From IMG/VR virus record IMGVR_UViG_3300027833_000011: a stretch of 64,000 bases of DNA; one strand, written 5' to 3'. The notes under the pieces are model-generated. The model made no database searches. It was not told where the DNA came from and was given only the letters and a program-made list of their open reading frames with translations. The translations under genes and the position numbers were made by a program. The stretch's first letter is position 1, and each line of letters begins with the position of its first letter. This stretch comes from a virus. Its lineage: Duplodnaviria > Caudoviricetes. Of this stretch, positions 1 to 57,688 are shown piece after piece.

Positions 1-978
1 AGAGCAGACTTTGATAGATTAACATCTAATTTAGTTGACCGTTCAATCAAACCTTGTGAAAAAGCATTGTCAGATGCGAACCTAACAATTGGTGAAATTG
101 ATGAGGTAATCTTAGTGGGAGGTTCAACTCGTATTCCAGCAGTACAGGATGCGGTTAAGAAGTTATTCGGTAAAGAACCAAATAAAGGTGTAAATCCTGA
201 TGAGGTTGTTGCGATGGGGGCATCGATTCAGGGTGGTGTATTATCCGGAGACGTTACAGATGTATTATTATTGGATGTCACTCCACTTTCATTAGGTATT
301 GAAACAATGGGTGGTGTTATGACAAAATTGATTGAATCAAACACAACAATCCCAACAAATAAATCACAGACGTTCTCAACCGCAATCGACAATCAAACAG
401 TAGTAGAGATACACGTTTTACAAGGTGAAAGACCAATGGCGACTAATAATAGAACATTAGGTAAGTTTAAATTAGAAAGTATTCCAATGGCACCGAGAGG
501 TATCCCACAGGTAGAAGTTACTTTTGATATTGACGCTAATGGTATTTTAAATGTTTCAGCGAAAGATAAAGGAACGGGTAAAGAACAAAAGATTAAGATT
601 GAATCCTCAACAGGTTTATCTGACGCAGACATCCAAAAGATGAAAGACGAAGCAGAACAAAATAGAGAAGAGGATAAAAAGAAGGAAGAAAAGATTAAAC
701 TTATTAATGAAGCCGATTCATATGTGTTTACAACAGAAAAACAAATGACTGAATTAGGTGACAAAATTTCTGAAGAAGAAAAAACAAACTTAGAGAAGTT
801 AATTGGAGAACTTAACGAGGCTAAGACTTCAGAAAATTTAGAACTTATCACAAGTAAAAAATCTGAACTTGAGGGAGTGTGGAATCAAATAACTACGAGA
901 CTCTATCAAACAGGAGAATCGGGTGATAGTGGTGGTCCTGATGAGGGGACACAAGATGTCGATTATGAAGAAGTTTAA
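1..978 (+). CDS. dnaK: DnaK/Hsp70 chaperone, C-terminal part (5' end lies outside the window)
   Basis: Frame is open from base 1 ([19 protein letters not shown]). Hsp70 motifs [37 protein letters not shown] and [12 protein letters not shown] are present. Confidence 0.97.
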
Positions 979-7060: not shown

Positions 7061-8839
7061 ATGACTAAACAGGAATTAATTACAGAATATACTAAATGTT
7101 TAAAGGATACTCCTTACGCATTGAAGACTTATTTAGAGACGTATGATAATACACAGTCTAAGTATGTCCCATTTGAACTATTTCCTGACCAAGAACAACT
7201 AATAAAAGATTACGACACATATAATGAAAACTTAGCCCTTAAATATCGACAAGCTGGTGTGTCAACCGCTACTGCAGCATGGGTTAGTAAAAAACTACAA
7301 TTCGCATCACCTAAACAACCTGAGAAGGTTTTGATTATCGCCAATAAGCTTGACACTGCGAAGGAAATGGCTAACAAGGTTAGAGGTTTTTTAAACCAAT
7401 GGCCTGATTGGATTAATGTTGGATTTTCTAAAGATAAGGATTCCCAATCACATTTTAGACTACTTAATGGTTGTGAAGTAAAAGCGGTAGCCACATCGAT
7501 GGATGCACTAAGGGGTTACACTCCTACGGTTTTAGTCTTTGATGAGGCGGCATATATTGATGCCGGTAATGATTTCTGGGCAGCCTGTATGGCATCACTT
7601 TCTACGGGTGGTAAAGTAATCGTAGTATCAACACCTAACGGGTTTGATAAAATTTATTACGAAATATACGCTCAGAGTCAGCAAGGTTTAAACGATTTTA
7701 AGATTACGGAGATGGTTTGGTATAAAGACCCTCGTTTCACTAAAGATTTAAGATGGATTAAAACTAAAGACATTATCGATTATATCCTTAATCGAAATAG
7801 GTATGACGATAATGAGGTGGTACTAAATGAACTAGACCAGTCAAAATTTCCTGAAATCATGAAGAGTGGTTATAAACCATACTCTAGTTGGTTCGAACAA
7901 ATGTCAAAAAAATTAAAATACGATAGACGTAAAATTTCTCAGGAGTTAGAGAATAACTTTTTAGGTTCTGGTGATAATGTTATTCCTGCTGAAACAATCG
8001 AAATGATTAAGGAGAGAATGATTGAAGACCCTATCGAAAAATATATGGCAGGTCAAATGTGGGTGTGGAATGAACCAATAAAAGACCACAGATATATTAT
8101 GGGTGTCGACGTGTCGAGAGGTGATTCAGAGGATTCATCTTCAATATGTATTGTTGATTTTGATACGAGAGAACAGGTTGCCGAATACTTAGGTAAAATA
8201 CCACCAGATGAATTGGCGGATGTTTGTTACAAATGGGGAACAATGTATTCCGCATTTACGGTTGTGGATATTACAGGTGGTATGGGTGTCGCTACTGTAA
8301 GAAAATTACAAGAGTTAGGGTATAAGGACTTATATGTTGATGGTATTAACGCATTTGATAAATGGTCATGGAACCCTAAATCTCAAGAAAAGATGCCTGG
8401 GTTATCATTTAACAACAAACGTACACAGATAGTAGCTGCGTTTGAAGAATCATTAAGACATAATTTCGTTGTTAAGTCTAAACGTTTGGTTAATGAAATG
8501 AATACTTTCGTTTATATTAATGGTAAGGCTGACCACATGAGAGGTCATCACGATGATTTGATTATGGCAATGGCAATGTGTGTTTATGTTGGTGAGTTTT
8601 CTTTCTCATTATTAAAAAAATCTGAAGCATCGACAAAGGCATTATTAGAAGGTTGGACGGTCACTGAGTCACCAAACACTCCACGCCCATCAGTAAATAG
8701 GAATGGACAACAAGTTGGGTCATTGGACCCATTTAGAGGGATAAGCCCGAATAACTCATCAAATACAAATCGTAGTGCGAGTAAACAAGATTATTCAGAT
8801 TATTCGTGGTTAATGGGTAATAAAAGAAGAAATAATTAA
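7061..8839 (+). CDS. terL: Terminase large subunit (T4 gp17-like)
   Basis: LKYRQAGVST (Walker A region), LVFDEAAYI (Walker B), VSTPNG, YIMGVDVSRG nuclease motif and HDDLIMAMA. Confidence 0.95.
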   Translation: MTKQELITEYTKCLKDTPYALKTYLETYDNTQSKYVPFELFPDQEQLIKDYDTYNENLALKYRQAGVSTATAAWVSKKLQFASPKQPEKVLIIANKLDTAKEMANKVRGFLNQWPDWINVGFSKDKDSQSHFRLLNGCEVKAVATSMDALRGYTPTVLVFDEAAYIDAGNDFWAACMASLSTGGKVIVVSTPNGFDKIYYEIYAQSQQGLNDFKITEMVWYKDPRFTKDLRWIKTKDIIDYILNRNRYDDNEVVLNELDQSKFPEIMKSGYKPYSSWFEQMSKKLKYDRRKISQELENNFLGSGDNVIPAETIEMIKERMIEDPIEKYMAGQMWVWNEPIKDHRYIMGVDVSRGDSEDSSSICIVDFDTREQVAEYLGKIPPDELADVCYKWGTMYSAFTVVDITGGMGVATVRKLQELGYKDLYVDGINAFDKWSWNPKSQEKMPGLSFNNKRTQIVAAFEESLRHNFVVKSKRLVNEMNTFVYINGKADHMRGHHDDLIMAMAMCVYVGEFSFSLLKKSEASTKALLEGWTVTESPNTPRPSVNRNGQQVGSLDPFRGISPNNSSNTNRSASKQDYSDYSWLMGNKRRNN

Positions 8840-45438: not shown

Positions 45439-48246
45439 ATGGCAAATTCTAACAGAGTTTTCGTCTCACCAGGAGTATTCACATCAGAAAAAGACTTGAG
45501 TTTTGTTTCTCAAAGCGTTGGTGTATCTACTTTAGGTTTAGTAGGTGAAACAAAAAAAGGTCCCGCATTTGAACCAGTATTGGTTTCGGGTTATAATGGA
45601 TTCAGAACAATGTTCGGTGGTTCTTCACCTGAAAAGATGGGTGAAACATTAAAATACCCACTTCCGTATTATGCAAAATCATACCTATCTCAATCATCAC
45701 AATTATTTGTGACAAGAGTATTGGGTTATTCAGGTTATGATGCAGGTTCGGCACATTCGATAAAAACTATCGCTGGTGTTAATACAACAACAATAGGACA
45801 ATCAAATTCACTTAAAGCGGATTTTGTTATTGAACTTGATAATGGTTCTTTAGATATCGCTGGTTTAGGTCAATTAGAAACAGATTATCTTAATACTTCA
45901 TTTGAATCAAATGCAGGTGTTACTACAAGTTTCTTAGATTTCGTAAACTTAAACCTATCAGAAGATAAGGTAATGGTTATGGGTCCATATTATAATACAT
46001 TCGATTGGAACGCTATTGGTGTTGATGATACGGATAAAGTTGTTTATCCAATGTCAGACTCTAAATGGGCAGACCAAATAGAATTTACAGGAACAAATGA
46101 AAGCGGATTAGCATTTTACGCAAGTAAATTCGACGACGCGGGGGTTATTAAAGTACAGATTGTGGTTATGGAATTAGATGTCGTAAGATTTTCAGAGTTT
46201 CATAATAAGACAATTGCTATATTACGTTCAAGAGCGGAATATACAGGTGACGATTTAAACTTCAATTTAAATAGTAATATTACGATTACTAGTGATGTGG
46301 TAAACGACAATGCTTTAGCTGACTTTGATTTATCATTCACATCTGCGGCAGGAGCACACAGTTTTACATGTAACTTATCACCATCGTCTAAGAAATTTAT
46401 AACTAAAGTGATTGGTGAATCGGCGTTTGATAAAAACCCTGATGATTATCCTGTTTATGTTGATAAGGTTTATGACAATTATTTAAATTGGTTAATCGCA
46501 ACAGGAAAAATTAAAGGATTATATACTGGAACTTTAGATAGTGTAAATGAGGGTGGAGACTTTAAGTCGAAATATACATCATCATATACTCCATATGTTG
46601 TTTCTGAAGTAAGAGGTGGTTTTGTATCTAATTTATTTAGATTCGCAACGATTTCAGACGGAGACGCATCAGCAAGAGAGGTTAAGATTTCTTTTGTAAA
46701 CATTTCAATTGAAAAACAAGAGTTCGATATCATTGTTAGAGATTTCTTCGATACGGATGCAAGTCCAATCGTTTTAGAAAAATTCTCAAGATGTTCTATG
46801 AATCCAGACGTACCAGGTTACGTAGCGAGAAAAGTAGGTACATCTGATGGTGAGTACGAATTAAAATCAAGTTATATTATATTAGAATTATCTGATGACG
46901 CACCGATAGACGCGGTACCATCAGGATTTAGAGGTTACGAGGTTAAAGATTATAACTTCGCTTCATCTTCTAACGCAAGTATTAACTATAAAAACGAATA
47001 CTACACTGCGGGACAGATTATCGGTATAGATAATGATGGTAATGATATTGTAGTAAACTCAGATAAAATAAGAAAAACATATTTAGGTGTTTCTAACACA
47101 GTTGGTTTTGACCCGTCATTCTTTGAATTTTCAGGTGATTACCAAGGTGTAGAATTACTTAAAGGTTTCCACCTTTCATCACAAGCTAACGGAGTTGAGT
47201 TTGTTAAGACTAATGAAAACTTTGAGTTATCAGAAGGAAACTTTGAAAAATTAGTTGGTTGTAAATTTACAATAGCACCTGTAGGTGGTTTTGACGGATT
47301 TGATATCTTTAGAAAAGAAAGAACTAACGGTGACCAATATATAAAAGGTAAATCACCATACTCAAACGCAGGGTTTGACCCTTACGTTGGTAATTCTGAT
47401 TACTACGCGTTCTTAGACGGTATTAGAACATATGCTAACCCTGAAGCGGTAGACATTAACTTATTCTCAACACCAGGTCTTAACTTCTTTGACAATTCAT
47501 CCTTAGTTGGTGAAGCAATCGATATGATTGAAGAAGAAAGAGCGGATTCATTATATGTAATTGATTCACCAAACAGGTCATCAGTAGATGAGATTGTAGG
47601 TGACATTGAGGATATCGGTTTTGATTCTAACTACTCAGCAACATATTGGCCTTGGATTCAGGTAAGAGATACTGAAAATTCAGTACAGGTTTACGTGGCA
47701 CCAACAGGTGAGGTATTAAAGAACATAGCTTTAACGGATAACGTGGCTTACCCATGGTTCGCATCAGCGGGTTACACAAGAGGTATAGTTAACGCAATTA
47801 AAGCGAAAAAGAAATTAACATTAGACGAAAGAGATGAGTTATATGTTAATAGAATTAACCCAATAGCAACATTCTCAGACGTAGGTACGATTATCTTCGG
47901 TAACAAAACATTACAAGTTAGAGAATCGGCATTAGACAGAATCAACGTAAGAAGATTATTACTACAAGCAAGAAAACTTATTTCAAACGTGGCGGTAAGA
48001 TTATTATTCGAACAGAATGATGAAGTTGTAAGAAACGAATTCTTAAGTTTAGTTAACCCAATTTTAGAGAACATAAAAAGAGAAAGAGGTTTAACAGAAT
48101 TTAAAGTTGTATTGTCATCTTCACCAGAAGATATGGATAGAAATCAGTTATCGGGTAAGATATACATTAAACCAACAAGAGCTCTTGAATTCATTGATAT
48201 TGAATTCTTAGTAACACCAACAGGAGCATCTTTTGAAAATATTTAA
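45439..48246 (+). CDS. Tail sheath protein (T4 gp18-like)
   Basis: VFVSPGVFTSEKD, YSATYWPW, YPWFASAGYTRG, RINPI, FGNKTL, LDRINVRRLL, FEQND, KPTRALEFIDIEF. Confidence 0.95.
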   Translation: MANSNRVFVSPGVFTSEKDLSFVSQSVGVSTLGLVGETKKGPAFEPVLVSGYNGFRTMFGGSSPEKMGETLKYPLPYYAKSYLSQSSQLFVTRVLGYSGYDAGSAHSIKTIAGVNTTTIGQSNSLKADFVIELDNGSLDIAGLGQLETDYLNTSFESNAGVTTSFLDFVNLNLSEDKVMVMGPYYNTFDWNAIGVDDTDKVVYPMSDSKWADQIEFTGTNESGLAFYASKFDDAGVIKVQIVVMELDVVRFSEFHNKTIAILRSRAEYTGDDLNFNLNSNITITSDVVNDNALADFDLSFTSAAGAHSFTCNLSPSSKKFITKVIGESAFDKNPDDYPVYVDKVYDNYLNWLIATGKIKGLYTGTLDSVNEGGDFKSKYTSSYTPYVVSEVRGGFVSNLFRFATISDGDASAREVKISFVNISIEKQEFDIIVRDFFDTDASPIVLEKFSRCSMNPDVPGYVARKVGTSDGEYELKSSYIILELSDDAPIDAVPSGFRGYEVKDYNFASSSNASINYKNEYYTAGQIIGIDNDGNDIVVNSDKIRKTYLGVSNTVGFDPSFFEFSGDYQGVELLKGFHLSSQANGVEFVKTNENFELSEGNFEKLVGCKFTIAPVGGFDGFDIFRKERTNGDQYIKGKSPYSNAGFDPYVGNSDYYAFLDGIRTYANPEAVDINLFSTPGLNFFDNSSLVGEAIDMIEEERADSLYVIDSPNRSSVDEIVGDIEDIGFDSNYSATYWPWIQVRDTENSVQVYVAPTGEVLKNIALTDNVAYPWFASAGYTRGIVNAIKAKKKLTLDERDELYVNRINPIATFSDVGTIIFGNKTLQVRESALDRINVRRLLLQARKLISNVAVRLLFEQNDEVVRNEFLSLVNPILENIKRERGLTEFKVVLSSSPEDMDRNQLSGKIYIKPTRALEFIDIEFLVTPTGASFENI

Positions 48247-48291: not shown

Positions 48292-49143
48292 ATGAAACAA
48301 ACATTAATAGAATCAGAAATTAAAAGACTTATGGAAATCATGAGTGTTGAGGTGTCTGAAGGTTTTAACGAAGAGGGTTTACCTGATTTTAAGTATTACG
48401 CATTTGATTGGGATGATAACCTAATGTATATGCCAACTGAAATTATGGTGAAAAGTTTTGGAGACCAAGAAATAGGTATGGGTACTGCAGATTTTGCTGA
48501 GTACAGAGGACAGATAGGAAAAGAAGACTTTGACTATAAAGGTCATACTATTGTTGGTTTTGCTGAAAATCCTTTTAGAAATTTCGGCGTAGATGGAAAT
48601 GAACAATTTGTTAAAGATGCTATGATTGCTAAAACAGGTCCTTCATGGAATGATTTTATAGAATGTATTAACGGAGGTTCAATATTTTCTATTATCACGG
48701 CAAGAGGACATAACCCTGAGACATTAAGAGAGGGTGTAGAGGCTATTGTTAAAGACGGTAAGGGTGGTTTATCATTCGAATCGTGTGTAGAGTCACTTAA
48801 GAAATATAAAGGTGTTATAGACGGGGATGGTGAAGAATTATTTCAAGAATATTTAGACTTATGTAGATTTCATCCTGTTTCACACGGAGCTGGTAGTGCT
48901 GCTAACCCTGAAGAAGAAAAAATTAAAGCATTAGAACAATTTATTAAACATGTTAATTCTTTATCTGAAGAATTGGCGGTTACGATGGAGTTAGAAAATG
49001 ACATCAAAAATAATTTTGTCCCGATGATTGGATTTTCTGATGATGATAAGGCTAATGTCGACAACGTAAAAAAATACTTAGACGACAAAGGAGAAGAAAA
49101 TGTCAACGTGTATTACACTAAGACTGATAAAACAAAAATGTAG
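48292..49143 (+). CDS. HAD-superfamily phosphatase-like protein
   Basis: Motif I YAFDWDDNL, motif II IITARGH, motif IV IGFSDDD. Confidence 0.65.
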   Translation: MKQTLIESEIKRLMEIMSVEVSEGFNEEGLPDFKYYAFDWDDNLMYMPTEIMVKSFGDQEIGMGTADFAEYRGQIGKEDFDYKGHTIVGFAENPFRNFGVDGNEQFVKDAMIAKTGPSWNDFIECINGGSIFSIITARGHNPETLREGVEAIVKDGKGGLSFESCVESLKKYKGVIDGDGEELFQEYLDLCRFHPVSHGAGSAANPEEEKIKALEQFIKHVNSLSEELAVTMELENDIKNNFVPMIGFSDDDKANVDNVKKYLDDKGEENVNVYYTKTDKTKM

Positions 49144-49334: not shown

Positions 49335-49823
49335 ATGGCTGATTTATTAATGAAAATGCCTGTTCCTTACGAACCAAAGAAAAAGAATAGGTTTATTTTA
49401 AGATTCCCTTCAAGTTTAGGGATAAATGAGTGGTATGTAAGTACAACATCTAGACCTTCAGCGAACATAGGTTCAGTTGAAATACCATTCCTAAACACCT
49501 CAACATTTGTTGCAGGTAGGTTTAATTGGAACACTATTAATGTAACGTTTAAAGACCCGATTGGTCCTTCAGCGGCACAAGCATTAATGGAATGGTTTAG
49601 ATTACACGCAGAATCTGTTACAGGTAGAATGGGTTATGCTGCGGGATATAAGAAAGATATCGAATTAGATATGTTAGACCCAACAGGTGTTGTGGTAGAA
49701 AAATGGATTATACAAGGAGCCTTTTTAACTGACTTAAACTTTAATGACTTATCTTACTCTGATGAAGGTTTAGCTGATATCTCAGTAACGTTAAGACCAG
49801 ATAGATGTATATTAGTATACTAA
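49335..49823 (+). CDS. Tail tube protein (T4 gp19-like)
   Basis: YEPKKKNRF, GRFNWNTINVTF.D, EWF, YKKDIEL.MLD..G.VVEKW...GAF; position after the sheath gene. Confidence 0.9.
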   Translation: MADLLMKMPVPYEPKKKNRFILRFPSSLGINEWYVSTTSRPSANIGSVEIPFLNTSTFVAGRFNWNTINVTFKDPIGPSAAQALMEWFRLHAESVTGRMGYAAGYKKDIELDMLDPTGVVVEKWIIQGAFLTDLNFNDLSYSDEGLADISVTLRPDRCILVY

Positions 49824-49926: not shown

Positions 49927-50676
49927 ATGGACGAACAGAATTATAAAATGGAAGTAGCCTTCGATGTAATACCGTTACCGACTAACGGGGTATTCTACAA
50001 AAATAAGAAAGACACACTTAAAGTTTCTTTTCTTACTGCATCGGATGAAAACATTTTAACCTCACAAAACTTAATCCAACAAGGTTTGGTTATTGATGAG
50101 TTACTTAAGGTTAAAATCTTAGATGACGATATTACCGTAGATGAATTACACGATTCAGACAAAGAAGCCGTTTTATTGTTTTTAAGAAATACCGCATATG
50201 GTTCTATGATTAAACTATCTGTAATTGACCCTGATACCGGTTCTTCGGTTGAGGTTGATTATGACCTACAAAATATTAAGTATAAAAAATTTACTCTAAC
50301 ATCTGATAGTGAAGGGTTATTTGATTATACACTACCAACATCTAAAAAAGTCGTTAAATTTAAGTTCTTATCACCAAATGATGAGAGAGAATTAGAAAAA
50401 ATTAGTGAGGTTTATAAAGATATGTTAATAAAACCAACAATTACTAAAAGGTTAGAAAAGATGATTATTTCAGTTGATGGTGAAAAAGACCCAATGAAAA
50501 TATCACACTTCATTAGTACAATACCTATTAGAGATTCTCAGAGTTTTAGGAAGTATGTCACTGACAACACACCAGGTTTAGACAAAGGGGTAGAGATAAC
50601 TTTACCTTCGGAAAAAAAAATACAAACATTCTTTAACCTTGACACAGAATTTTTTCGTCCATTCTACGGACTATAA
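49927..50676 (+). CDS. Tail/baseplate-hub assembly chaperone (gp26/lambda G-like)
   Basis: VIPLPTNGVFY, FLTASDENIL, DKEAVLLFLRNTAYG, LPTSKK..KFKFL; lies between tube and tape measure; ATG at 49927. Confidence 0.75.
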   Translation: MDEQNYKMEVAFDVIPLPTNGVFYKNKKDTLKVSFLTASDENILTSQNLIQQGLVIDELLKVKILDDDITVDELHDSDKEAVLLFLRNTAYGSMIKLSVIDPDTGSSVEVDYDLQNIKYKKFTLTSDSEGLFDYTLPTSKKVVKFKFLSPNDERELEKISEVYKDMLIKPTITKRLEKMIISVDGEKDPMKISHFISTIPIRDSQSFRKYVTDNTPGLDKGVEITLPSEKKIQTFFNLDTEFFRPFYGL

Positions 50677-50842
50677 AACATCTGTTTTAGAAGAAATCTA
50701 TTATTTAGGAAAACATTTGAATTTCACGTATAGTGATGTTATGATTATGCCTGTCTACGAAAGAAAGTTTTTTGTTAATATGTTAGTTGAGGAATTTGAA
50801 AAAAAGAAACAAGACTACGAGAACGAAAAGGCTAAAAGGTAA
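50639..50842 (+). CDS. Overlapping chaperone C-terminal ORF (gp51/lambda T-like), probably reached by frameshift
   Basis: EEIYYL..HLNFTYSDVMIMPVYERKFF; no ATG before the conserved-looking part; +1 frame relative to the upstream gene. Confidence 0.65.
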   Translation: MTQNFFVHSTDYKTSVLEEIYYLGKHLNFTYSDVMIMPVYERKFFVNMLVEEFEKKKQDYENEKAKR

Positions 50843-50901
50843 TCTACATTATACCCACAAAAAAAAGGTTAACAGGTATTTATAGTTATACTTAATACCA
50901 A

Positions 50902-52737
50902 ATGAATTTTAAAGACTTACTTGCTGACTTAAATATAACAGACCCTCAAGGTAAAGATAAACTGAATAGATATATTACTCAGGTTACTGAGGAGGCCACT
51001 AAAAAATCTAATAACAGTATGAGCAGTAGTGGCTCTGCGTTGGACGGGGTTAGTAACTATATAACAGGATTAGGTCAAGTTAATGCTTCTGCGATAACTT
51101 TTGATAGAAACATATTACAGTTAACTGATGATGTTATAGATTTTGGTAAGGCACTGGTTAGTATGGATTTTGGTAAAATTATGACCAGCTTAAGTACTGT
51201 CGCTAAACCAATAATTGCACTCGATGGTGCACTTAGAAAACAAGTAAATGTTAGTCTTGGATTAACAGGTGGATTAGCTAGAGACCTTAGAACCGACATG
51301 ATTGAGGTTGCTGAGGAGACTACAAAATATGGTATTGAAATAGAAGATGTTGCTGCGGCATATTCATCTTTTATAACCGACTTAGGACTTGCGGTTCCTA
51401 TCAGTAGGGATGTTGCTGAAGGATTGATGTTACAATCCAAAGCCGTAGGGTTGAGCGCAACTCAAGCAGGTTCTTTCTTAGCTACCTTAACAAATTTTGG
51501 GGTTGGTTTAGAAAAAGGACCTGAAACACTCAAAGAAATGGCTTCAACTGCGAGGTCAATGGGATTGTCTACCAACAAATTTATGAACTTTGCCACTACA
51601 AATTTAAAGATGATAAACACTTTAGGTTTCAGCAAGGGAATTAGAGGGTTCACTCAGATAGCCGCAAAGGCGTCCTCTATTGGTTACGACCTTGCTAGTG
51701 CACAGACTGCCGCTGAGAAACTTTTTGACATTGACGGTGCGGTTGAAATGGCGGCACAGTTAAATGTGTTGGGTGGTGATTTTGGTAAGTTAGGTAATGC
51801 TATTGATTTAATGTTCTCACCAACGAACGATATGGAAGGGTTTACTAATTCATTAATGGACGCGACTAAACAGTTTGTTTCTTTTAATTCTGAGAAAAAC
51901 ACATTCGACGTTAGTCCTTTAGATTTAAGACGAGCTCGTGAATTTGCTAAAGTAACAGGAATGAGTATAGAAGAAGTTATACGAAGTGGTAAGAGATTGG
52001 CGAAGATGGATATGATAAAGGATAAAATATCTTTCTTACCAGACTTATCCGAAGACGAAAGAACACTGATTGGAAATTTAGGTTCTATAAGTGATAGTGG
52101 TGAGGTTACCTTAAAAGGTAAAGTTGTTAGTGAAATGGGAAGTGTAGAACTTACAAATACACTTAGGTCTTTAAAACAAGAAGATAAGAAAAAAGCAATG
52201 ACTGAGAAAGAGATACTAAACGAACAGTTAAATATGTTTAGTAAATCGGTTTATTATTTAAAAGCAATTGCCTTACAGGTTACAGGTGCTGGAGACGGTG
52301 GTGGTGCCTTTACTGCGGTTGGGGATGATTTGAACGACTTGGTATATGATATGGTTAAAGACGATACTAAGAGAGAGGCTATGTTAGATAGTTTTATGAC
52401 GATGTTCGCCAAAAACGACATTAGAGGTATTGAAGCAAGTTTAGCTGCAAATGCTACTACATCTGACCAAAAAATTGCGGTACAAGGGATTAAAGACAAG
52501 ATGGCGTTGTATATGAAAGAATATCAAAATGTGATGGGGGTGTCTGCAAAGAATAGTGGTATCTCAGGCGTTGGTAGTTCTTTGAAAGGGAATGTTGATG
52601 TCAAGCTTAGTCCAACGACAAACGTTAGTGTTACAATCGATGGTCAATTAGCGGAAAATTTCACTAGTGGAGAAAGAAAAATACTTAAAAATTATGCTGC
52701 GAAAGTGGTTGTTGAAAACCCGACACCAAAAAGATAA
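50902..52737 (+). CDS. Tape measure-like protein
   Basis: Helical Ala/Gly/Met-rich protein located right after the chaperone pair. Confidence 0.65.
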   Translation: MNFKDLLADLNITDPQGKDKLNRYITQVTEEATKKSNNSMSSSGSALDGVSNYITGLGQVNASAITFDRNILQLTDDVIDFGKALVSMDFGKIMTSLSTVAKPIIALDGALRKQVNVSLGLTGGLARDLRTDMIEVAEETTKYGIEIEDVAAAYSSFITDLGLAVPISRDVAEGLMLQSKAVGLSATQAGSFLATLTNFGVGLEKGPETLKEMASTARSMGLSTNKFMNFATTNLKMINTLGFSKGIRGFTQIAAKASSIGYDLASAQTAAEKLFDIDGAVEMAAQLNVLGGDFGKLGNAIDLMFSPTNDMEGFTNSLMDATKQFVSFNSEKNTFDVSPLDLRRAREFAKVTGMSIEEVIRSGKRLAKMDMIKDKISFLPDLSEDERTLIGNLGSISDSGEVTLKGKVVSEMGSVELTNTLRSLKQEDKKKAMTEKEILNEQLNMFSKSVYYLKAIALQVTGAGDGGGAFTAVGDDLNDLVYDMVKDDTKREAMLDSFMTMFAKNDIRGIEASLAANATTSDQKIAVQGIKDKMALYMKEYQNVMGVSAKNSGISGVGSSLKGNVDVKLSPTTNVSVTIDGQLAENFTSGERKILKNYAAKVVVENPTPKR

Positions 52738-52772: not shown

Positions 52773-55700
52773 ATGTCTAATTTAAATTTTACAAATACTG
52801 AGATATTAAGAAACAGTTTACTTAGTAGGAATCTAGATGATTCTTATGGGTTTAGTACTCCTTTGCCTAATACTTTCACTGATTCCACATATGGAATACA
52901 AGGAACTTCAGACCTATCAGTAAATGACCAATTGGGTGTTAGTGAAACGGCAGAACCAATTATAGACACTATAGGTGTTTTAAATCAGTATGGTCCTGAA
53001 CAATATAGTATAACAAGTATTCAAACGGTAATTAGTAGTATTGGTAGTCAATTGGACTACTTACAGAGTTTTGTTCCTTCACCGAGTAGAGGTAGTTTAG
53101 GGTTAATTTCAATATTAACAGGTGATGATAATGGTGAGGGGGATACAGAAATGGTTTCTATAGCACGTGCCCAACTTAGGGGTATGGCATTGGAAACAAT
53201 GGGTGTTAAGTTACGAGAATCCACATTAGGGAGAATTAATGCGTTAGACGCAATTAATGACCCAACGGCTTTAGACGGGTTACTGACGGGTAGAGAAAAA
53301 ATAATTGAAAGAGATTACCAGATTACAGTTCCCGGTAATCCAATAACAAGAGCGGCTGAATATTTTGCAAGAGTTTCGGGGACACAGTTACCCGTTTCTT
53401 ATATTCCTGGTGAGTTCTTTGAAGAAAATATTGAAAAAGGTAAAGTTGAAGGGTTCTTAGACAAAGCGGGTAATGCGATTGGTCAAGTATTAAATTTAGA
53501 CTTTAACAGTCACAAAAAAACATATAGTCAAAAACTATTACAATATACTTCGGGTGGTCAAAAATCAAGACTATTTAAATCCGTAAATTATAACAAATAT
53601 AAACCAAACTTTGATAGTAGTGTTGGGGGTGTTTTAAACAATGTTGTTGGGTTTGTCCAAGGACTTGTAGGGTTAGACCCTTCAGATGGGTCTTTTTACG
53701 TTGGTTCGCCAGACTCAGACCCAGGAACAATCTTTAACTATGATAGTCAAAGTAACACACAAAAAGGGTTTATTGTTTCAGGACCGTCTAAGATGGTTAA
53801 AATGTTTGAGGGTGATATACCATTAAACACATACCCACAGAGTGGTAGAAAGTACTTAAACGGTACTAGACCAAGAAACACAGAAACCGATTTCATTTGG
53901 ATTGGTGATGGTAATGACATACCAAGAGGAACGATAGATGGTGTTGCCGTACAATCAAACGAGAAAACCATTAAAGAAGATACTCTTTTAGGGTTCACAG
54001 AAAAAATGGTTCAAGACGCATCCGCATTAGAGGGTGAGGCAAGATTAAAACATCCCGGTACTGTTATAAGTAACGTGGCCTACAAATATCATGATGGGTA
54101 CAAAATAATATCCAAAGGTAGTGGGGTTATAGGTGAGGATGATGACTTCTGTCGTGTATGGACTAAAGATTACGGATATGACCGTTATGGAAGGTTGGTT
54201 AGACATAAAGGAATACAAAATAATCAGAGAAGGGTTCCAGGGTCTGTAATTAGGTCACAAATGATGTTAAATATTGCACCAACTAAAGATAATAATGGTG
54301 ACAACATAAACTTTGGAACAGATAAAGAAGGTAATAACCTAACTAAGTATATGTTCTCAATTGAGAATTTAGCGTGGGTTGGTTCTGACAAATTAAAAGA
54401 CAGACCAATATGTGAACAAGGACCGAATGATGGTAGAATTATGTGGTTCCCACCATATGATTTAAAATATACTGATGATAATAGAGCAAGTTGGACTTCA
54501 CATACGTTCTTAGGTAGACCTGAACCTGTATACACATATAATAATTCAGAAAGAAGTGGTACCATCAACTTTAAAGTTGTTGTTGACCACCCTTCAATTG
54601 TTAATTTACTAAGAAAAAAATTAGAGAAGAATATACCTGTAGAGAAACAAGAGGAGATAATGACCGCTTTCTTTGCTGGTTGTAAAGATTATGATATTTA
54701 CGAATTAGCGAGTGAGTTTAGTTCACTATCAATGAACGATGTTGAAAGGCTTGACGACTATTTAAAATTAAAAGGGGATTTAAAGTCTGACGTAAAAGAT
54801 GGAGAAAAAGTAGTTGCTGAACCAGAAACAACGGTGACACCCATCAAGTCTATTTTCGAAACAAAATATGGTGCTAAAACGAAAGACATTCAACTATATT
54901 GGTTTAATGATGTACCAGGACCAAACACAACGGCAGATAAGACACCTAATTCTGCGTTTGATGATGACCTTAATGGGTATATTGAAAGGTTTGACGTACC
55001 TCAAGGGGAGGACAGTGATTATCAAAAAAAGGTTAACGAACTTACAGACGACGATTTATTTGAAGGCGATGTTAATTGGGGGGAAAATGAATTGTTGGTT
55101 TTTAAAGGTATTTTAGACAATATTAAAACGGTTGTTGAAGAACTAAAGACAACGGTTAATCAAACCCTTACCCAAGAAGACGACAAAGAGGATACGTTTA
55201 GTTTTGAAATAAAAATAAAAGCAACCACATCGGCAGTTGCTACACAGGCATATAACAATGCGTTAGCAAGTAGAAGAGCAGAATCACTTAAGAAATATTT
55301 GTTAGGTGATATAGACCAAAAAAGAATTAAAATAGTAATAGAGTCAACAGGTGAAAACCCTGATTTCCAAGGTTTAAATTGTACTAAATTACAAAACACA
55401 ACTAAAGGTAAAATATATTCAAAATCGGCAACCTATTGTCGTACTGCAACATCTACTATTACCGTATTAGGTGAACCAACAATAACAGAGTACAAGGAGG
55501 GAAAAACAGAACCAACATACAAGAAAGCAATAGATAAATTAGAAAAAAATCCTGAGAATAACGACGGTTGGGACTTAATATTAAAAACAATCCATTCTGA
55601 ATGTGATTACTTTTTAGAATTAAAAGAAACGGACCCATTGGTGTTTGGAAGTTTAGTGGAGAAGTTAAAATACTTCCAACCAGGGTTTCACTCAACAACA

Positions 55701-57365
55701 CCAGAAGGTCTAAACTCACGATTAACCTTTTTACAACAATGTTTAAGACCTGGTGAAACAATAAAAGTTTTCGATGAAAACAAAAATGAAGTTACAGACT
55801 TATCATCAAATAGTGCGTTTGGTAAACCACCTATTTGTGTGTTAAGAATTGGGGACTTTTTCCATACCAAAATGGTTGTTGATAATGTCAACTTTTCGTA
55901 TGATGACGCATTATGGGATATGAACCCTGAGGGTATTGGGTTGCAACCAATGATAGCGTCTGTTAATATGGGAGTTAAGTTTATTGGCGGTCACGGTATT
56001 AGTGGTGCAGTTAACGAATTACAAAACGCACTATCATTTAATTATTACGCAAACACAGAGGTTTATGACTGGATGTCAACTGAGACTGATGGTGGTAGAG
56101 ACCCTAAAAAGGTTGAAGAAATTCAAAACGCGTACAAAGATAGAATGACTAAACAATTGTCGGATAATTTAAACAACACAGAACTGTCAAAAGACGATGA
56201 CGAATATTGGGGTAATTTAATGGAAAGTGACAATGAAAATATTACATATAATCAGTTTTATAACAATTTTGCTGAGAGTCTTAATGATTACGCAAATGAG
56301 TTAATTACTCAAACGAAAAATGTATACGACAAATTTGGTAACTCTGCGGTACGACTACTTTACGAAAAAGAAAAAAGATGGAATATAAAATCCGTTACAA
56401 AATATAGTACAACCGATAGTGTTGAAATAGGGTATATTGGTAGAGATGAATATGATTACAATGATGCATATGACAAACTGTTATTTATTATTAAATCGGT
56501 GGTTGATAACGTAAATGAAAACTGGGATGTAATATATATTGAATTAAAGAAAACGATAAACTTCAACGAAGAGAAAAACGAAGAATTTATAAAAATAAAT
56601 AAACACTTATTAAAAGAGGTTAAAAATAAATTTTCAGATTTTGGAATACAAATACAGGATTCGATAAGTGCGGTACATAACAAACAGAAATCGTTACAAG
56701 AGTCGTTAGATGCTTTTAATATTATCTTAGGGGATGAAATTGATGGGTATAAAGATAAAGATGGAGAGTATGTTGTAAAATACCTTAATAATTTGACACA
56801 GGATAACGGAGACTTATCGGGTGATTTTGAAGCGGCGTTAAATAAAGCAAAAAAACTTTATGACGATTATGTGGATACATTATCTAATGATGTTAAAGAT
56901 TATGAAATAAGTACTAAAACTGACTTAACTGACAGAGGTACAGGCGACACATTAAACGCGGCTATTTATTATTACAATGAATTACTACCTTTATTTTTAA
57001 ATGATGGTATACTTGATATTGACGAACAAATCAAAAACAATGTAGAGTTTGATAGACGTATAAGAAGAAAATTCGCAGAACAGTTAGTGATTATAAAAAA
57101 TAAAAACGTTAAGACGGTTAATATTGATAGTGTTATTTGGGAAAACGTTGTTAAAACAAACCAAGTTTATGACTTTAGGTTAACCGATTCTATTGACCCG
57201 TCAAATAGTGATATATTAAAAGATTACTATACACAAGTTAATCCTAATAAAGAGGATTCTAAGGGAATATGGAACCCATTTACAATACCTAGTATCGGTG
57301 CTCCGGATTCTGCGGTACTTTATTTCCCGCCTAACCAATTTAGTAATGACCCTCAATTAGCCTAA
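52773..57365 (+). CDS. Large baseplate/tail-tube initiator protein with an embedded OmpA-like domain
   Basis: MWFPPYDLKYTD, FLGRPEPVYTY and PPICVLRIGDFFHTK..DNVNFSYD (tube-initiator-like segments); YNNALASRRAESLKKYL (OmpA-C-like). Confidence 0.6.
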   Translation: MSNLNFTNTEILRNSLLSRNLDDSYGFSTPLPNTFTDSTYGIQGTSDLSVNDQLGVSETAEPIIDTIGVLNQYGPEQYSITSIQTVISSIGSQLDYLQSFVPSPSRGSLGLISILTGDDNGEGDTEMVSIARAQLRGMALETMGVKLRESTLGRINALDAINDPTALDGLLTGREKIIERDYQITVPGNPITRAAEYFARVSGTQLPVSYIPGEFFEENIEKGKVEGFLDKAGNAIGQVLNLDFNSHKKTYSQKLLQYTSGGQKSRLFKSVNYNKYKPNFDSSVGGVLNNVVGFVQGLVGLDPSDGSFYVGSPDSDPGTIFNYDSQSNTQKGFIVSGPSKMVKMFEGDIPLNTYPQSGRKYLNGTRPRNTETDFIWIGDGNDIPRGTIDGVAVQSNEKTIKEDTLLGFTEKMVQDASALEGEARLKHPGTVISNVAYKYHDGYKIISKGSGVIGEDDDFCRVWTKDYGYDRYGRLVRHKGIQNNQRRVPGSVIRSQMMLNIAPTKDNNGDNINFGTDKEGNNLTKYMFSIENLAWVGSDKLKDRPICEQGPNDGRIMWFPPYDLKYTDDNRASWTSHTFLGRPEPVYTYNNSERSGTINFKVVVDHPSIVNLLRKKLEKNIPVEKQEEIMTAFFAGCKDYDIYELASEFSSLSMNDVERLDDYLKLKGDLKSDVKDGEKVVAEPETTVTPIKSIFETKYGAKTKDIQLYWFNDVPGPNTTADKTPNSAFDDDLNGYIERFDVPQGEDSDYQKKVNELTDDDLFEGDVNWGENELLVFKGILDNIKTVVEELKTTVNQTLTQEDDKEDTFSFEIKIKATTSAVATQAYNNALASRRAESLKKYLLGDIDQKRIKIVIESTGENPDFQGLNCTKLQNTTKGKIYSKSATYCRTATSTITVLGEPTITEYKEGKTEPTYKKAIDKLEKNPENNDGWDLILKTIHSECDYFLELKETDPLVFGSLVEKLKYFQPGFHSTTPEGLNSRLTFLQQCLRPGETIKVFDENKNEVTDLSSNSAFGKPPICVLRIGDFFHTKMVVDNVNFSYDDALWDMNPEGIGLQPMIASVNMGVKFIGGHGISGAVNELQNALSFNYYANTEVYDWMSTETDGGRDPKKVEEIQNAYKDRMTKQLSDNLNNTELSKDDDEYWGNLMESDNENITYNQFYNNFAESLNDYANELITQTKNVYDKFGNSAVRLLYEKEKRWNIKSVTKYSTTDSVEIGYIGRDEYDYNDAYDKLLFIIKSVVDNVNENWDVIYIELKKTINFNEEKNEEFIKINKHLLKEVKNKFSDFGIQIQDSISAVHNKQKSLQESLDAFNIILGDEIDGYKDKDGEYVVKYLNNLTQDNGDLSGDFEAALNKAKKLYDDYVDTLSNDVKDYEISTKTDLTDRGTGDTLNAAIYYYNELLPLFLNDGILDIDEQIKNNVEFDRRIRRKFAEQLVIIKNKNVKTVNIDSVIWENVVKTNQVYDFRLTDSIDPSNSDILKDYYTQVNPNKEDSKGIWNPFTIPSIGAPDSAVLYFPPNQFSNDPQLA

Positions 57366-57370
57366 AAATT

Positions 57371-57688
57371 ATGCAGTACTACGATAGATATTCTGAATTT
57401 CATTTTAACGGAGAACACAAAGTTGTTCCTGCGATTATTTTAAATAAAAAAGGTTCTGATGTTGTTGTTACCTATAAAAAGGGTGTTTCAAGATTAGATA
57501 AATTCTCACAACAATATTACGGAACACCGTTCTTTAATTGGTTAATATTACAAGCAAACCCAAAATATGGAGGTTTAGAGTGGAATATTCCGGATGGTGA
57601 TACTATAATTATACCATTCCCTTTGGTCCCAACTTTAGAAGAGTATAAGACAAAGGTAGACGAATATTACTACTACTATGGCAGATAA
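57371..57688 (+). CDS. LysM-like baseplate wedge protein (gp53/tail-X-like)
   Basis: YKKGVSRLDKFSQQYYGTP..NWLILQANP....I..G..IIIP. Confidence 0.7.
   Translation: MQYYDRYSEFHFNGEHKVVPAIILNKKGSDVVVTYKKGVSRLDKFSQQYYGTPFFNWLILQANPKYGGLEWNIPDGDTIIIPFPLVPTLEEYKTKVDEYYYYYGR

Follow-up and report, generated by a model that had tools for sequence, protein, structure and literature searches.

The DNA analysed here, referred to below as the window, is a stretch of 64,000 nucleotides (nt) from a marine tailed virus of the Caudoviricetes (IMG/VR record IMGVR_UViG_3300027833_000011). Its subject is a putative tail-assembly gene whose 3' end overlaps a second reading frame (Table 1). The first open reading frame (ORF1) extends from ATG 49927 to TAA 50674–50676. 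An alternative start listed for it, GTG 49864, is most likely spurious and ATG 49927 the real one, because homologues of ORF1 begin with the same 'MD' as the product of ATG 49927. As an earlier note on this DNA had read it, ORF1 ends in GAA (50647) TTT TTT CGT CCA TTC TAC GGA CTA TAA (50676), and the sequence agrees exactly. The second frame, ORF2, which that note had described as open in the +1 frame from 50600 and overlapping the end of ORF1, also has the coordinates and the peptide given for it: the +1 frame contains no stop codon from 50600 to TAA 50840–50842 and encodes ...NFFVHSTDYKTSVLEEIYYLGK.... There is indeed no ATG ahead of the conserved segment NFFVHSTDYKTSVLEEIYYLGK, but a possible start, TTG, is found at 50639, three codons 5' of the Phe-Phe (FF) pair encoded by TTT TTT.

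The product of ORF1 matches the Pfam family PF12322 with 28.3 bits (cut-off 24.5) and an E value of 1.8e-6, and 11 of 13 ORF1 homologues match the same family, with a best E value of 4e-20. The PF12322 model also matches gp26 and gp51 of phage T4, which are hub assembly chaperones (PMC3004832). By these profile matches ORF1 is classified as a member of the T4 gp26/gp51 family and not as a homologue of lambda G. The gene had earlier been called a tail assembly chaperone of the lambda G/GT kind; its position in the genome is G/GT-like, whereas the homology is to PF12322 and not to G. Relatives have a single PF12322-like locus each, as judged by tblastn of their complete genomes, and no second gp51-like or PF12322-like gene was detected elsewhere within the window. 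An AlphaFold (AF2) model of ORF1 with a predicted local distance difference test (pLDDT) score of 87 is matched in BFVD by dozens of proteins labelled 'baseplate hub' from large myoviruses, while a Foldseek search with the same model against the PDB gave no match at E<=0.001. The top rows obtained with VIA-align, 3fgx (Z 6.0), 3klu ('protein yqbn', Z 5.2) and the HK97 chaperone 2ob9 (Z 4.5), lie below the reliable range of that tool and are suggestive of a chaperone-like fold. All four Cys residues of the two CxxC zinc-ribbon motifs (CPxC ... CPxCG) have been lost in the window lineage (DP-DTG ... LPS-EKK) but are kept in most relatives (L016, L021–L026 and L002) and in T4 gp26 and gp51. Because the hidden Markov model (HMM) match holds without them, these Cys residues were not treated as defining for the family.

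Related loci were collected in two scans of IMG/VR, which yielded 104 loci; the second scan confirmed at least 524 relatives. Flavobacterium phage immuto, Microcystis phage Mel-JY01 and an uncultured 484-kb phage came from a tblastn search of cultured-phage genomes. When HMMs of ORF1 and ORF2 were run on all stop-to-stop frames of every locus, an ORF2 homologue was found in the +1 frame in all 105 loci that extend past ORF1 (91 of them unique, with 28–100% identity), and never in the 0 or −1 frame. Three loci lack an ORF2 homologue, and these stop at a contig edge. A +1-frame homologue is also present in immuto, Mel-JY01, the uncultured phage record LR756508, HSE3, SP-15, LIS04, GXN1 and LuckySocke. 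Judged by these comparisons, the overlap layout is far beyond chance. The alignment of homologous loci, which the earlier note had proposed, thus revealed conservation of both the +1 overlap and the slip motif and no conserved start codon. The joined ORF1-ORF2 product is annotated in none of the annotated records examined. A word-indexed protein search of limited sensitivity for in-frame ORF1-ORF2 fusions gave no match to the window extension. A 193-aa protein matched by the extension alignment was rejected as a fusion since it begins inside the extension and continues with approximately 130 unrelated residues. Likewise, no paper on a frameshift in the gp26/gp51 family was found in a search of the openly accessible literature.

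The position of the shift can be narrowed down by comparing the 91 unique loci. The site reads TTT TTT CGN CCN in 75 of them, TTT TTT TGG CCT in eight, TTT CTT TGG CCT in four, TTC TTT TGG CCT in two and TTT CTA TTC CCT in one; one further locus has TTC TTT CGC TTT. Several loci have a +1-frame stop codon (GTA GAN, read as TAG) located 5 nt 5' of the first TTT, and the ORF1 stop falls one to four codons 3' of CCN, so the shift is confined to about seven codons. UUU followed by a pyrimidine is kept in every +1 lineage, and re-pairing one base forward therefore yields UUY. The Arg codon that follows belongs to the CGN box in 76 of 76 cases (CGT 32, CGG 23, CGC 18, CGA 3), with no instance of AGA or AGG. 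Elsewhere in these genes, AGA accounts for 69% of Arg codons, CGN for 17% and CGG for as little as 0.7%, as opposed to 30% CGG at the site. The third base of the Arg codon is free, so that the residue encoded in the +1 frame varies among V, G, A and D. It is thus the 'C-G' and the zero-frame Arg that are under selection, not the +1-frame protein. In the window, CGT makes up 15% of Arg codons (4.9 per 1000 codons), and an in-frame TTT_CGN occurs once in 15,442 codons, at the shift site. On the basis of codon usage, CGN is predicted to be a slowly decoded zero-frame A-site codon. Upstream of the site, the Gly codon located three codons 5' is GGG in 83% of cases versus 12% in the background, and GGGG is found no more than 12 nt upstream in 68 of the 91 loci versus 1% of background windows. 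This tract would represent a Shine-Dalgarno-like element of the kind that stimulates the +1 shift of prfB.

The sequence downstream of the site evolves as +1-frame coding sequence. Beyond the ORF1 stop, differences between related pairs of ORF2 amount to 510, 268 and 1155 at +1-frame codon positions 1, 2 and 3, respectively. Of the three population variants inside ORF2, those at 50710 and 50717 are synonymous, and the one at 50829 changes K to R in the +1 frame. In 18 of the 91 loci no ATG, GTG or TTG is present upstream of the conserved segment, and the first ATG in these loci is found 11–32 codons into or beyond this segment.

The conserved +1 overlap, the conserved slip motif, the coding selection on the extension and the absence of a conserved start codon support a programmed +1 ribosomal frameshift at UUU UUU CGU in the window gene, an explanation that we regard as highly probable. 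Most ribosomes would stop at TAA 50674–50676 and release the 249-aa short form. With peptidyl-tRNA-Phe on the second UUU (50653–50655) and CGU (50656–50658) slow to fill the A site, the tRNA-Phe would re-pair one base forward on UUC (50654–50656). Decoding would then resume at GUC 50657 and proceed in the +1 frame to TAA 50842, so that a fraction of the ribosomes would produce a gp51-like long form of 304 aa (...TEFF-VHSTDYK...) with the junction peptide ...LDTEFFVHSTDYK. The 61 extra residues of this form would represent the C-terminal extension present in T4 gp51 and missing from gp26. If the pair works as lambda G/GT does, the tape-measure protein would be bound by the part common to both forms, and the less abundant long form would connect the tape measure to another tail component when tube assembly begins. 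We infer here the ribosomal nature of the shift, its efficiency and the binding partners of both products. The earlier note had suggested a G/GT-like pair made by a +1 or a −2 shift; the pair and the +1 shift are supported by the comparisons, the −2 shift much less so.

The same frame can be reached by a −2 ribosomal slip on U6 (giving ...EFFFVHS...) or by slippage of the RNA polymerase that deletes one U from the transcript, and the six or seven consecutive T present at the site in the window and in most relatives would suit either mechanism. However, loci with an interrupted or shortened T run retain the +1 layout, as in TTC TTT CGT (L038, HSE3 and GXN1), TTC TTT TGG, TTT CTT TGG, TTT CTA TTC and CTG TTT CAG (LuckySocke). 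Such sites offer no −2 re-pairing, and polymerase slippage is implausible on three or four T, whereas a move from UUU to UUY is always possible. The exclusive use of rare CGN as the next codon is a translational, not a transcriptional, signal. Contigs assembled from four public runs of different studies (two RNA and two DNA libraries) show substitutions only, with no insertion or deletion across 50400–50950, and the two RNA-library contigs carry unedited T6 and A9, which speaks against polymerase slippage, although contig data are compatible with rare slipped transcripts. We consider either of these mechanisms quite unlikely. The same homopolymers, T6 and the A9 run at 50611–50619, are typical places for insertion and deletion errors, and the overlap might accordingly be an assembly error or a freshly broken single gene. 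The end of ORF1 and the +1 ORF are identical to those of the window in nine independent IMG/VR contigs, and the +1 layout, in which the site is followed by a brief, conserved zero-frame tail, is found in lineages with 23–35% identity. Together with the absence of insertions and deletions in the four runs, the identical contigs effectively refute an assembly error or a fresh pseudogene, which is left with a negligible probability.

The extension could also be an independent small gene, started at TTG 50639 or translationally coupled to ORF1, with an overlap that merely serves compactness. Some kind of start codon (ATG, GTG or, in most cases, TTG) is found upstream of FF in the +1 frame in 73 of the 91 loci, and the counterpart of ORF2 in the E. 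coli jumbo phage PBECO4 possesses an ATG of its own, which overlaps the ORF1 stop, and is annotated as a separate coding sequence. Yet most of the upstream TTGs are by-products of zero-frame TTT GGG (Phe-Gly) codons, and the 18 remaining loci offer no upstream start. An independent gene needs neither a conserved UUU_Y followed by a rare CGN, nor a fixed overlap at FF, nor the −1 heptamers found elsewhere in the family, and it would not account for the collinearity of the fused sequence with T4 gp51, a single chain. An independent gene is, in our judgement, very improbable.

Several observations weigh against the programmed +1 frameshift or limit its support. TTG 50639, three codons before FF, could start ORF2 in the window lineage. 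This lineage is without the G-rich tract upstream of the site (GAC ACA GAA is found instead), and the flanking RNA structure is not significant (z −0.35 downstream and −0.40 upstream), so that no stimulator is visible in the window beyond the codons themselves. CGT, at 4.9 per 1000 codons, is uncommon yet not very rare in the window phage. The 91 loci are phylogenetically related, and their counts overstate the number of independent observations. The RNA data consist of contigs and are compatible with a minority of slipped transcripts. The homology between the extension and the C-terminus of gp51 is modest (phrog_634 E 0.0025, hhalign P 2.5e-4), and the trans-frame protein is a prediction whose support is comparative.

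Two other candidate signals were rejected. The A9 run lies inside ORF1 (GAA AAA AAA ATA) and forms an A_AAA_AAA −1 heptamer. The −1 frame entered there closes after eight codons, the run is absent in relatives, and relatives carry +1-frame stops between its position and the FF motif. Being unconserved and outside the interval of about seven codons to which the shift is confined, the run can be dismissed as the site and is probably incidental. RNA structure was dismissed as a stimulator on account of its insignificant z scores; a 4-bp hairpin immediately downstream of the site lacks conservation.

A comparison with the two T4 proteins suggests what the short and long forms correspond to. The PHROG profile phrog_150 has 282 positions. 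T4 gp26 (208 aa) covers positions 14–235 and ORF1 of the window positions 13–233, while T4 gp51 (249 aa) covers positions 13–280 and a +1 fusion lacking the first 35 residues (with TTTC read as one step) positions 51–279. Thus, in addition to scoring above the Pfam threshold, ORF1 spans the profile as gp26 does and the fusion as gp51 does. The N-terminally truncated ORF1 alone (50032–50673) covers positions 51–233, and with the extension added the score is 35.1 bits instead of 30.1. When the 91 extensions were aligned and compared with the C-terminal extension of a 92-member gp51 alignment, the hhalign P value was 2.5e-4, and the full fusion is collinear with gp51 through the junction when compared by hhalign with the gp51 family alignment; hhalign comparisons with single T4 sequences are weak, and the method is informative only with the family alignment. 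T4 gp26 (encoded at 7803–8429 of the T4 record L028, minus strand) ends in ...KEFFELL, with its terminus falling at the Phe-Phe motif used by its relatives for the shift, and T4 gp51 runs on past the aligned ...DVFKLL... with an extension. What distinguishes the long (gp51-like) from the short (gp26-like) form is approximately 45 additional C-terminal residues, and the pair encoded in the window fits this pattern: ORF1 would correspond to gp26 and the trans-frame product to gp51. In T4, in contrast to the window, the short and long forms are encoded by two diverged and divergently transcribed paralogous genes, with no frameshift. T4 gp26 and gp51 are grouped in the family tree with support of 100/100, which is consistent with a lineage-specific duplication. 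T4-like homologues of gp51 carry a second Pfam family, PF28602, beside PF12322; PF28602 probably models the gp51 C-terminal extension.

More distant members of the family carry overlapping extensions at the FF position as well and appear to have arrived at different recoding solutions. A +1 shift would occur at TTC TTT CGT CCC in Bacillus phage HSE3, TTT TTT CAC in Bacillus phage SP-15, TTT TTT AGT in Listeria phage LIS04, TTC TTT CGT in GXN1 and CTG TTT CAG in Streptomyces phage LuckySocke. A −1 arrangement is seen in Ralstonia phage RsoM2USA (GT T TTT TTT), in Xanthomonas phage XacN1 and Stenotrophomonas phage RAS14 (T TTT TTA in both), in the uncultured megaphage record LR756511 (T TTT TTC; ORF2 HMM E 3.6e-10) and in the E. 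coli jumbo phage PBECO4 (T TTT TTC), where the extension also has its own ATG. The −1 heptamers, U_UUU_UUC, U_UUU_UUU and U_UUU_UUA, sit at the same FF position, and in the family tree the −1 lineages comprise one well-supported group plus LR756511. Because both +1 and −1 sites are found at the FF position, it is recoding at this position that is conserved and not one particular frame. Conserved recoding at a position is reportedly the signature of G/GT recognized by Xu, Hendrix and Duda. In PBECO4 (2190–2414 of its locus L116), and also in 121Q and other Asteriusvirus records, the −1-frame extension follows CAT TTT TTC GAG TAA TG, in which the heptamer is accompanied by an ATG overlapping the ORF1 stop. 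In the E. coli jumbo phages the extension may be made by frameshift, by coupled re-initiation or by both.

The genes that surround ORF1 in the window are listed in Table 1 and, by their profile matches and order, appear to constitute a contractile-tail module. The tube gene is directly 5' of ORF1 in 21 of 24 diverse related loci checked, with 70–85% identity in most related loci and 45–50% in three distant ones. On the other side, the 611-aa protein has no Pfam or PHROG match, and tblastn of this protein against the annotated tape-measure genes of distant relatives recovered L014 alone. Its language-model look-alikes are PhageMin_Tail/TMP clusters (score 0.92), and the next large gene is annotated as a tape measure in the relatives immuto, HSE3 and LIS04. 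Its position and the look-alike lead make it a probable tape-measure protein. In immuto and HSE3 the tube gene is found straight after the sheath gene. The 283-aa gene that separates the two in the window looks like a clade-specific insertion, because relatives such as these have sheath and tube adjacent. Residues 812–856 of the 1530-aa protein show a weak OmpA-like match (PF00691, E 8e-4, below cut-off). The window stretch is present in runs of 18 studies, mostly marine or seawater metagenomes and metatranscriptomes, along with two runs labelled as single organisms, which might be host cultures or isolates.

Table 1. Predicted features of the tail region of the window and the evidence for each
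Feature	Coordinates	Strand	Assignment or evidence
Tail sheath gene	45439..48246	+	phrog_23 1e-57; PF04984 and PF17482
283-aa gene between sheath and tube	48292–49143		no Pfam or PHROG match
Tail tube gene (gp19-like), directly upstream of ORF1	49335..49823	+	phrog_4542 1.6e-27; weak PF06841
ORF1, zero-frame product, 249 aa	49927..50676	+	putative gp26-like short form of PF12322 (T4_baseplate) hub/tail-assembly chaperone
Predicted shift site TTT TTT CGT CCA	50650..50661	+	motif counts, flanking stops, codon bias
+1-frame extension, 61 codons plus TAA	50657..50842	+	'T-like' / gp51-C-terminus-like
Probable tape-measure protein, 611 aa, directly downstream	50902..52737	+	position and look-alikes
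1530-aa protein after tape-measure candidate	52773–57365		
gp25-like wedge protein	57371–57688		
1896-aa protein	3' of gp25-like wedge gene		same tail module

Frameshifting in tail chaperones, with lambda gpG and gpGT as the model pair, was reportedly described by Levin in 1993 and by Xu, Hendrix and Duda in 2004, with a review in PMC5009743. The window gene resembles lambda G/GT in its location after the tube gene and ahead of the probable tape-measure gene, in its two products with a common N-terminal body, and in a shift placed a few codons before the zero-frame stop. The layout, moreover, is kept while the sequence diverges, with an overlapping frame, a slippery site and no conserved independent start. 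The differences are in the direction and the protein: the window clade would shift +1 at UUU_CGN and lambda shifts −1 at an X_XXY_YYZ heptamer, PF12322 has no sequence similarity to G, and the body of the window protein, at approximately 245 aa, is roughly twice the size of G. The +1 site of bacterial prfB, which encodes release factor 2 (RF2), is CUU_UGA_C with an upstream Shine-Dalgarno-like element. In both cases a P-site tRNA on a U-rich codon would re-pair +1 during slow filling of the A site; most relatives of the window have a G-rich Shine-Dalgarno-like tract, and four lineages use CUU_U exactly as prfB does. Where prfB has a stop in the A site, these phages have a rare sense codon (CGN or UGG), there is no autoregulatory logic, and the window itself is without the Shine-Dalgarno-like tract. 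Capsid and tail genes of Listeria phage PSA are also said to use +1 shifts (Zimmer 2003), at sites reportedly of the CCC_UGA type and not UUU_CGN. PSA and the haloarchaeal myovirus HSTV-2, for whose chaperone a +1 shift has been predicted (PMC5009743), share with the window a forward shift that yields a C-terminally extended structural or assembly protein, but the protein families are different. The site itself can be compared with that of influenza A virus PA-X, the +1 site UCC_UUU_CGU (Jagger 2012, cited in PMC5009743). The core is identical, with tRNA-Phe moving from UUU to UUC before a little-used CGU, but in the window the shift would be made by a bacterial ribosome in a phage structural gene; the likeness is one of convergence and not of homology.

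For the family as a whole, we find it reasonably likely that PF12322 gp26/gp51 proteins are the contractile-tail counterpart of lambda G/GT, ancestrally encoded by one gene recoded at Phe-Phe, with +1 shifting at UUU_CGN, −1 shifting at U_UUU_UUN and the T4 duplication as its present-day forms. The users of +1 would then include many environmental phages as well as phages of Bacillus, Flavobacterium, cyanobacteria and Streptomyces, and the users of −1 the jumbo phages of Ralstonia, Xanthomonas and Stenotrophomonas and possibly those of E. coli. The retention of the layout in all 105 related sequences and the homology to gp26 and gp51 would link the two hub-chaperone genes of T4 with the lambda G/GT frameshift through recoding in PF12322.

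Conservation of G-T frameshifting has been reported for long-tailed phages 'except T4' (PMC5009743). Few recoding events are as conserved as tail-chaperone frameshifting, which has been described as nearly always −1 and as missing from T4. The predicted +1 shift in PF12322 extends the G/GT paradigm by a new variant and by a large group of phages, at least 524 relatives, in which it is unannotated. In this group the shift would be forward, at a UUU whose next base is a pyrimidine and opens a rare codon. It also indicates that, within a single family, a +1 and a −1 solution can stand in for each other at the same position of the protein. The long product is split or omitted by gene callers and in the curated records examined, which means that annotation pipelines miss a conserved assembly protein. 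The cultured relatives SP-15, HSE3, immuto and 121Q/PBECO4 make the idea directly testable. The finding also suggests a purpose for T4 gp26 and gp51; if true, T4 would owe its place as the textbook exception to the conserved tail frameshift to having replaced recoding by two duplicated genes, 26 and 51.

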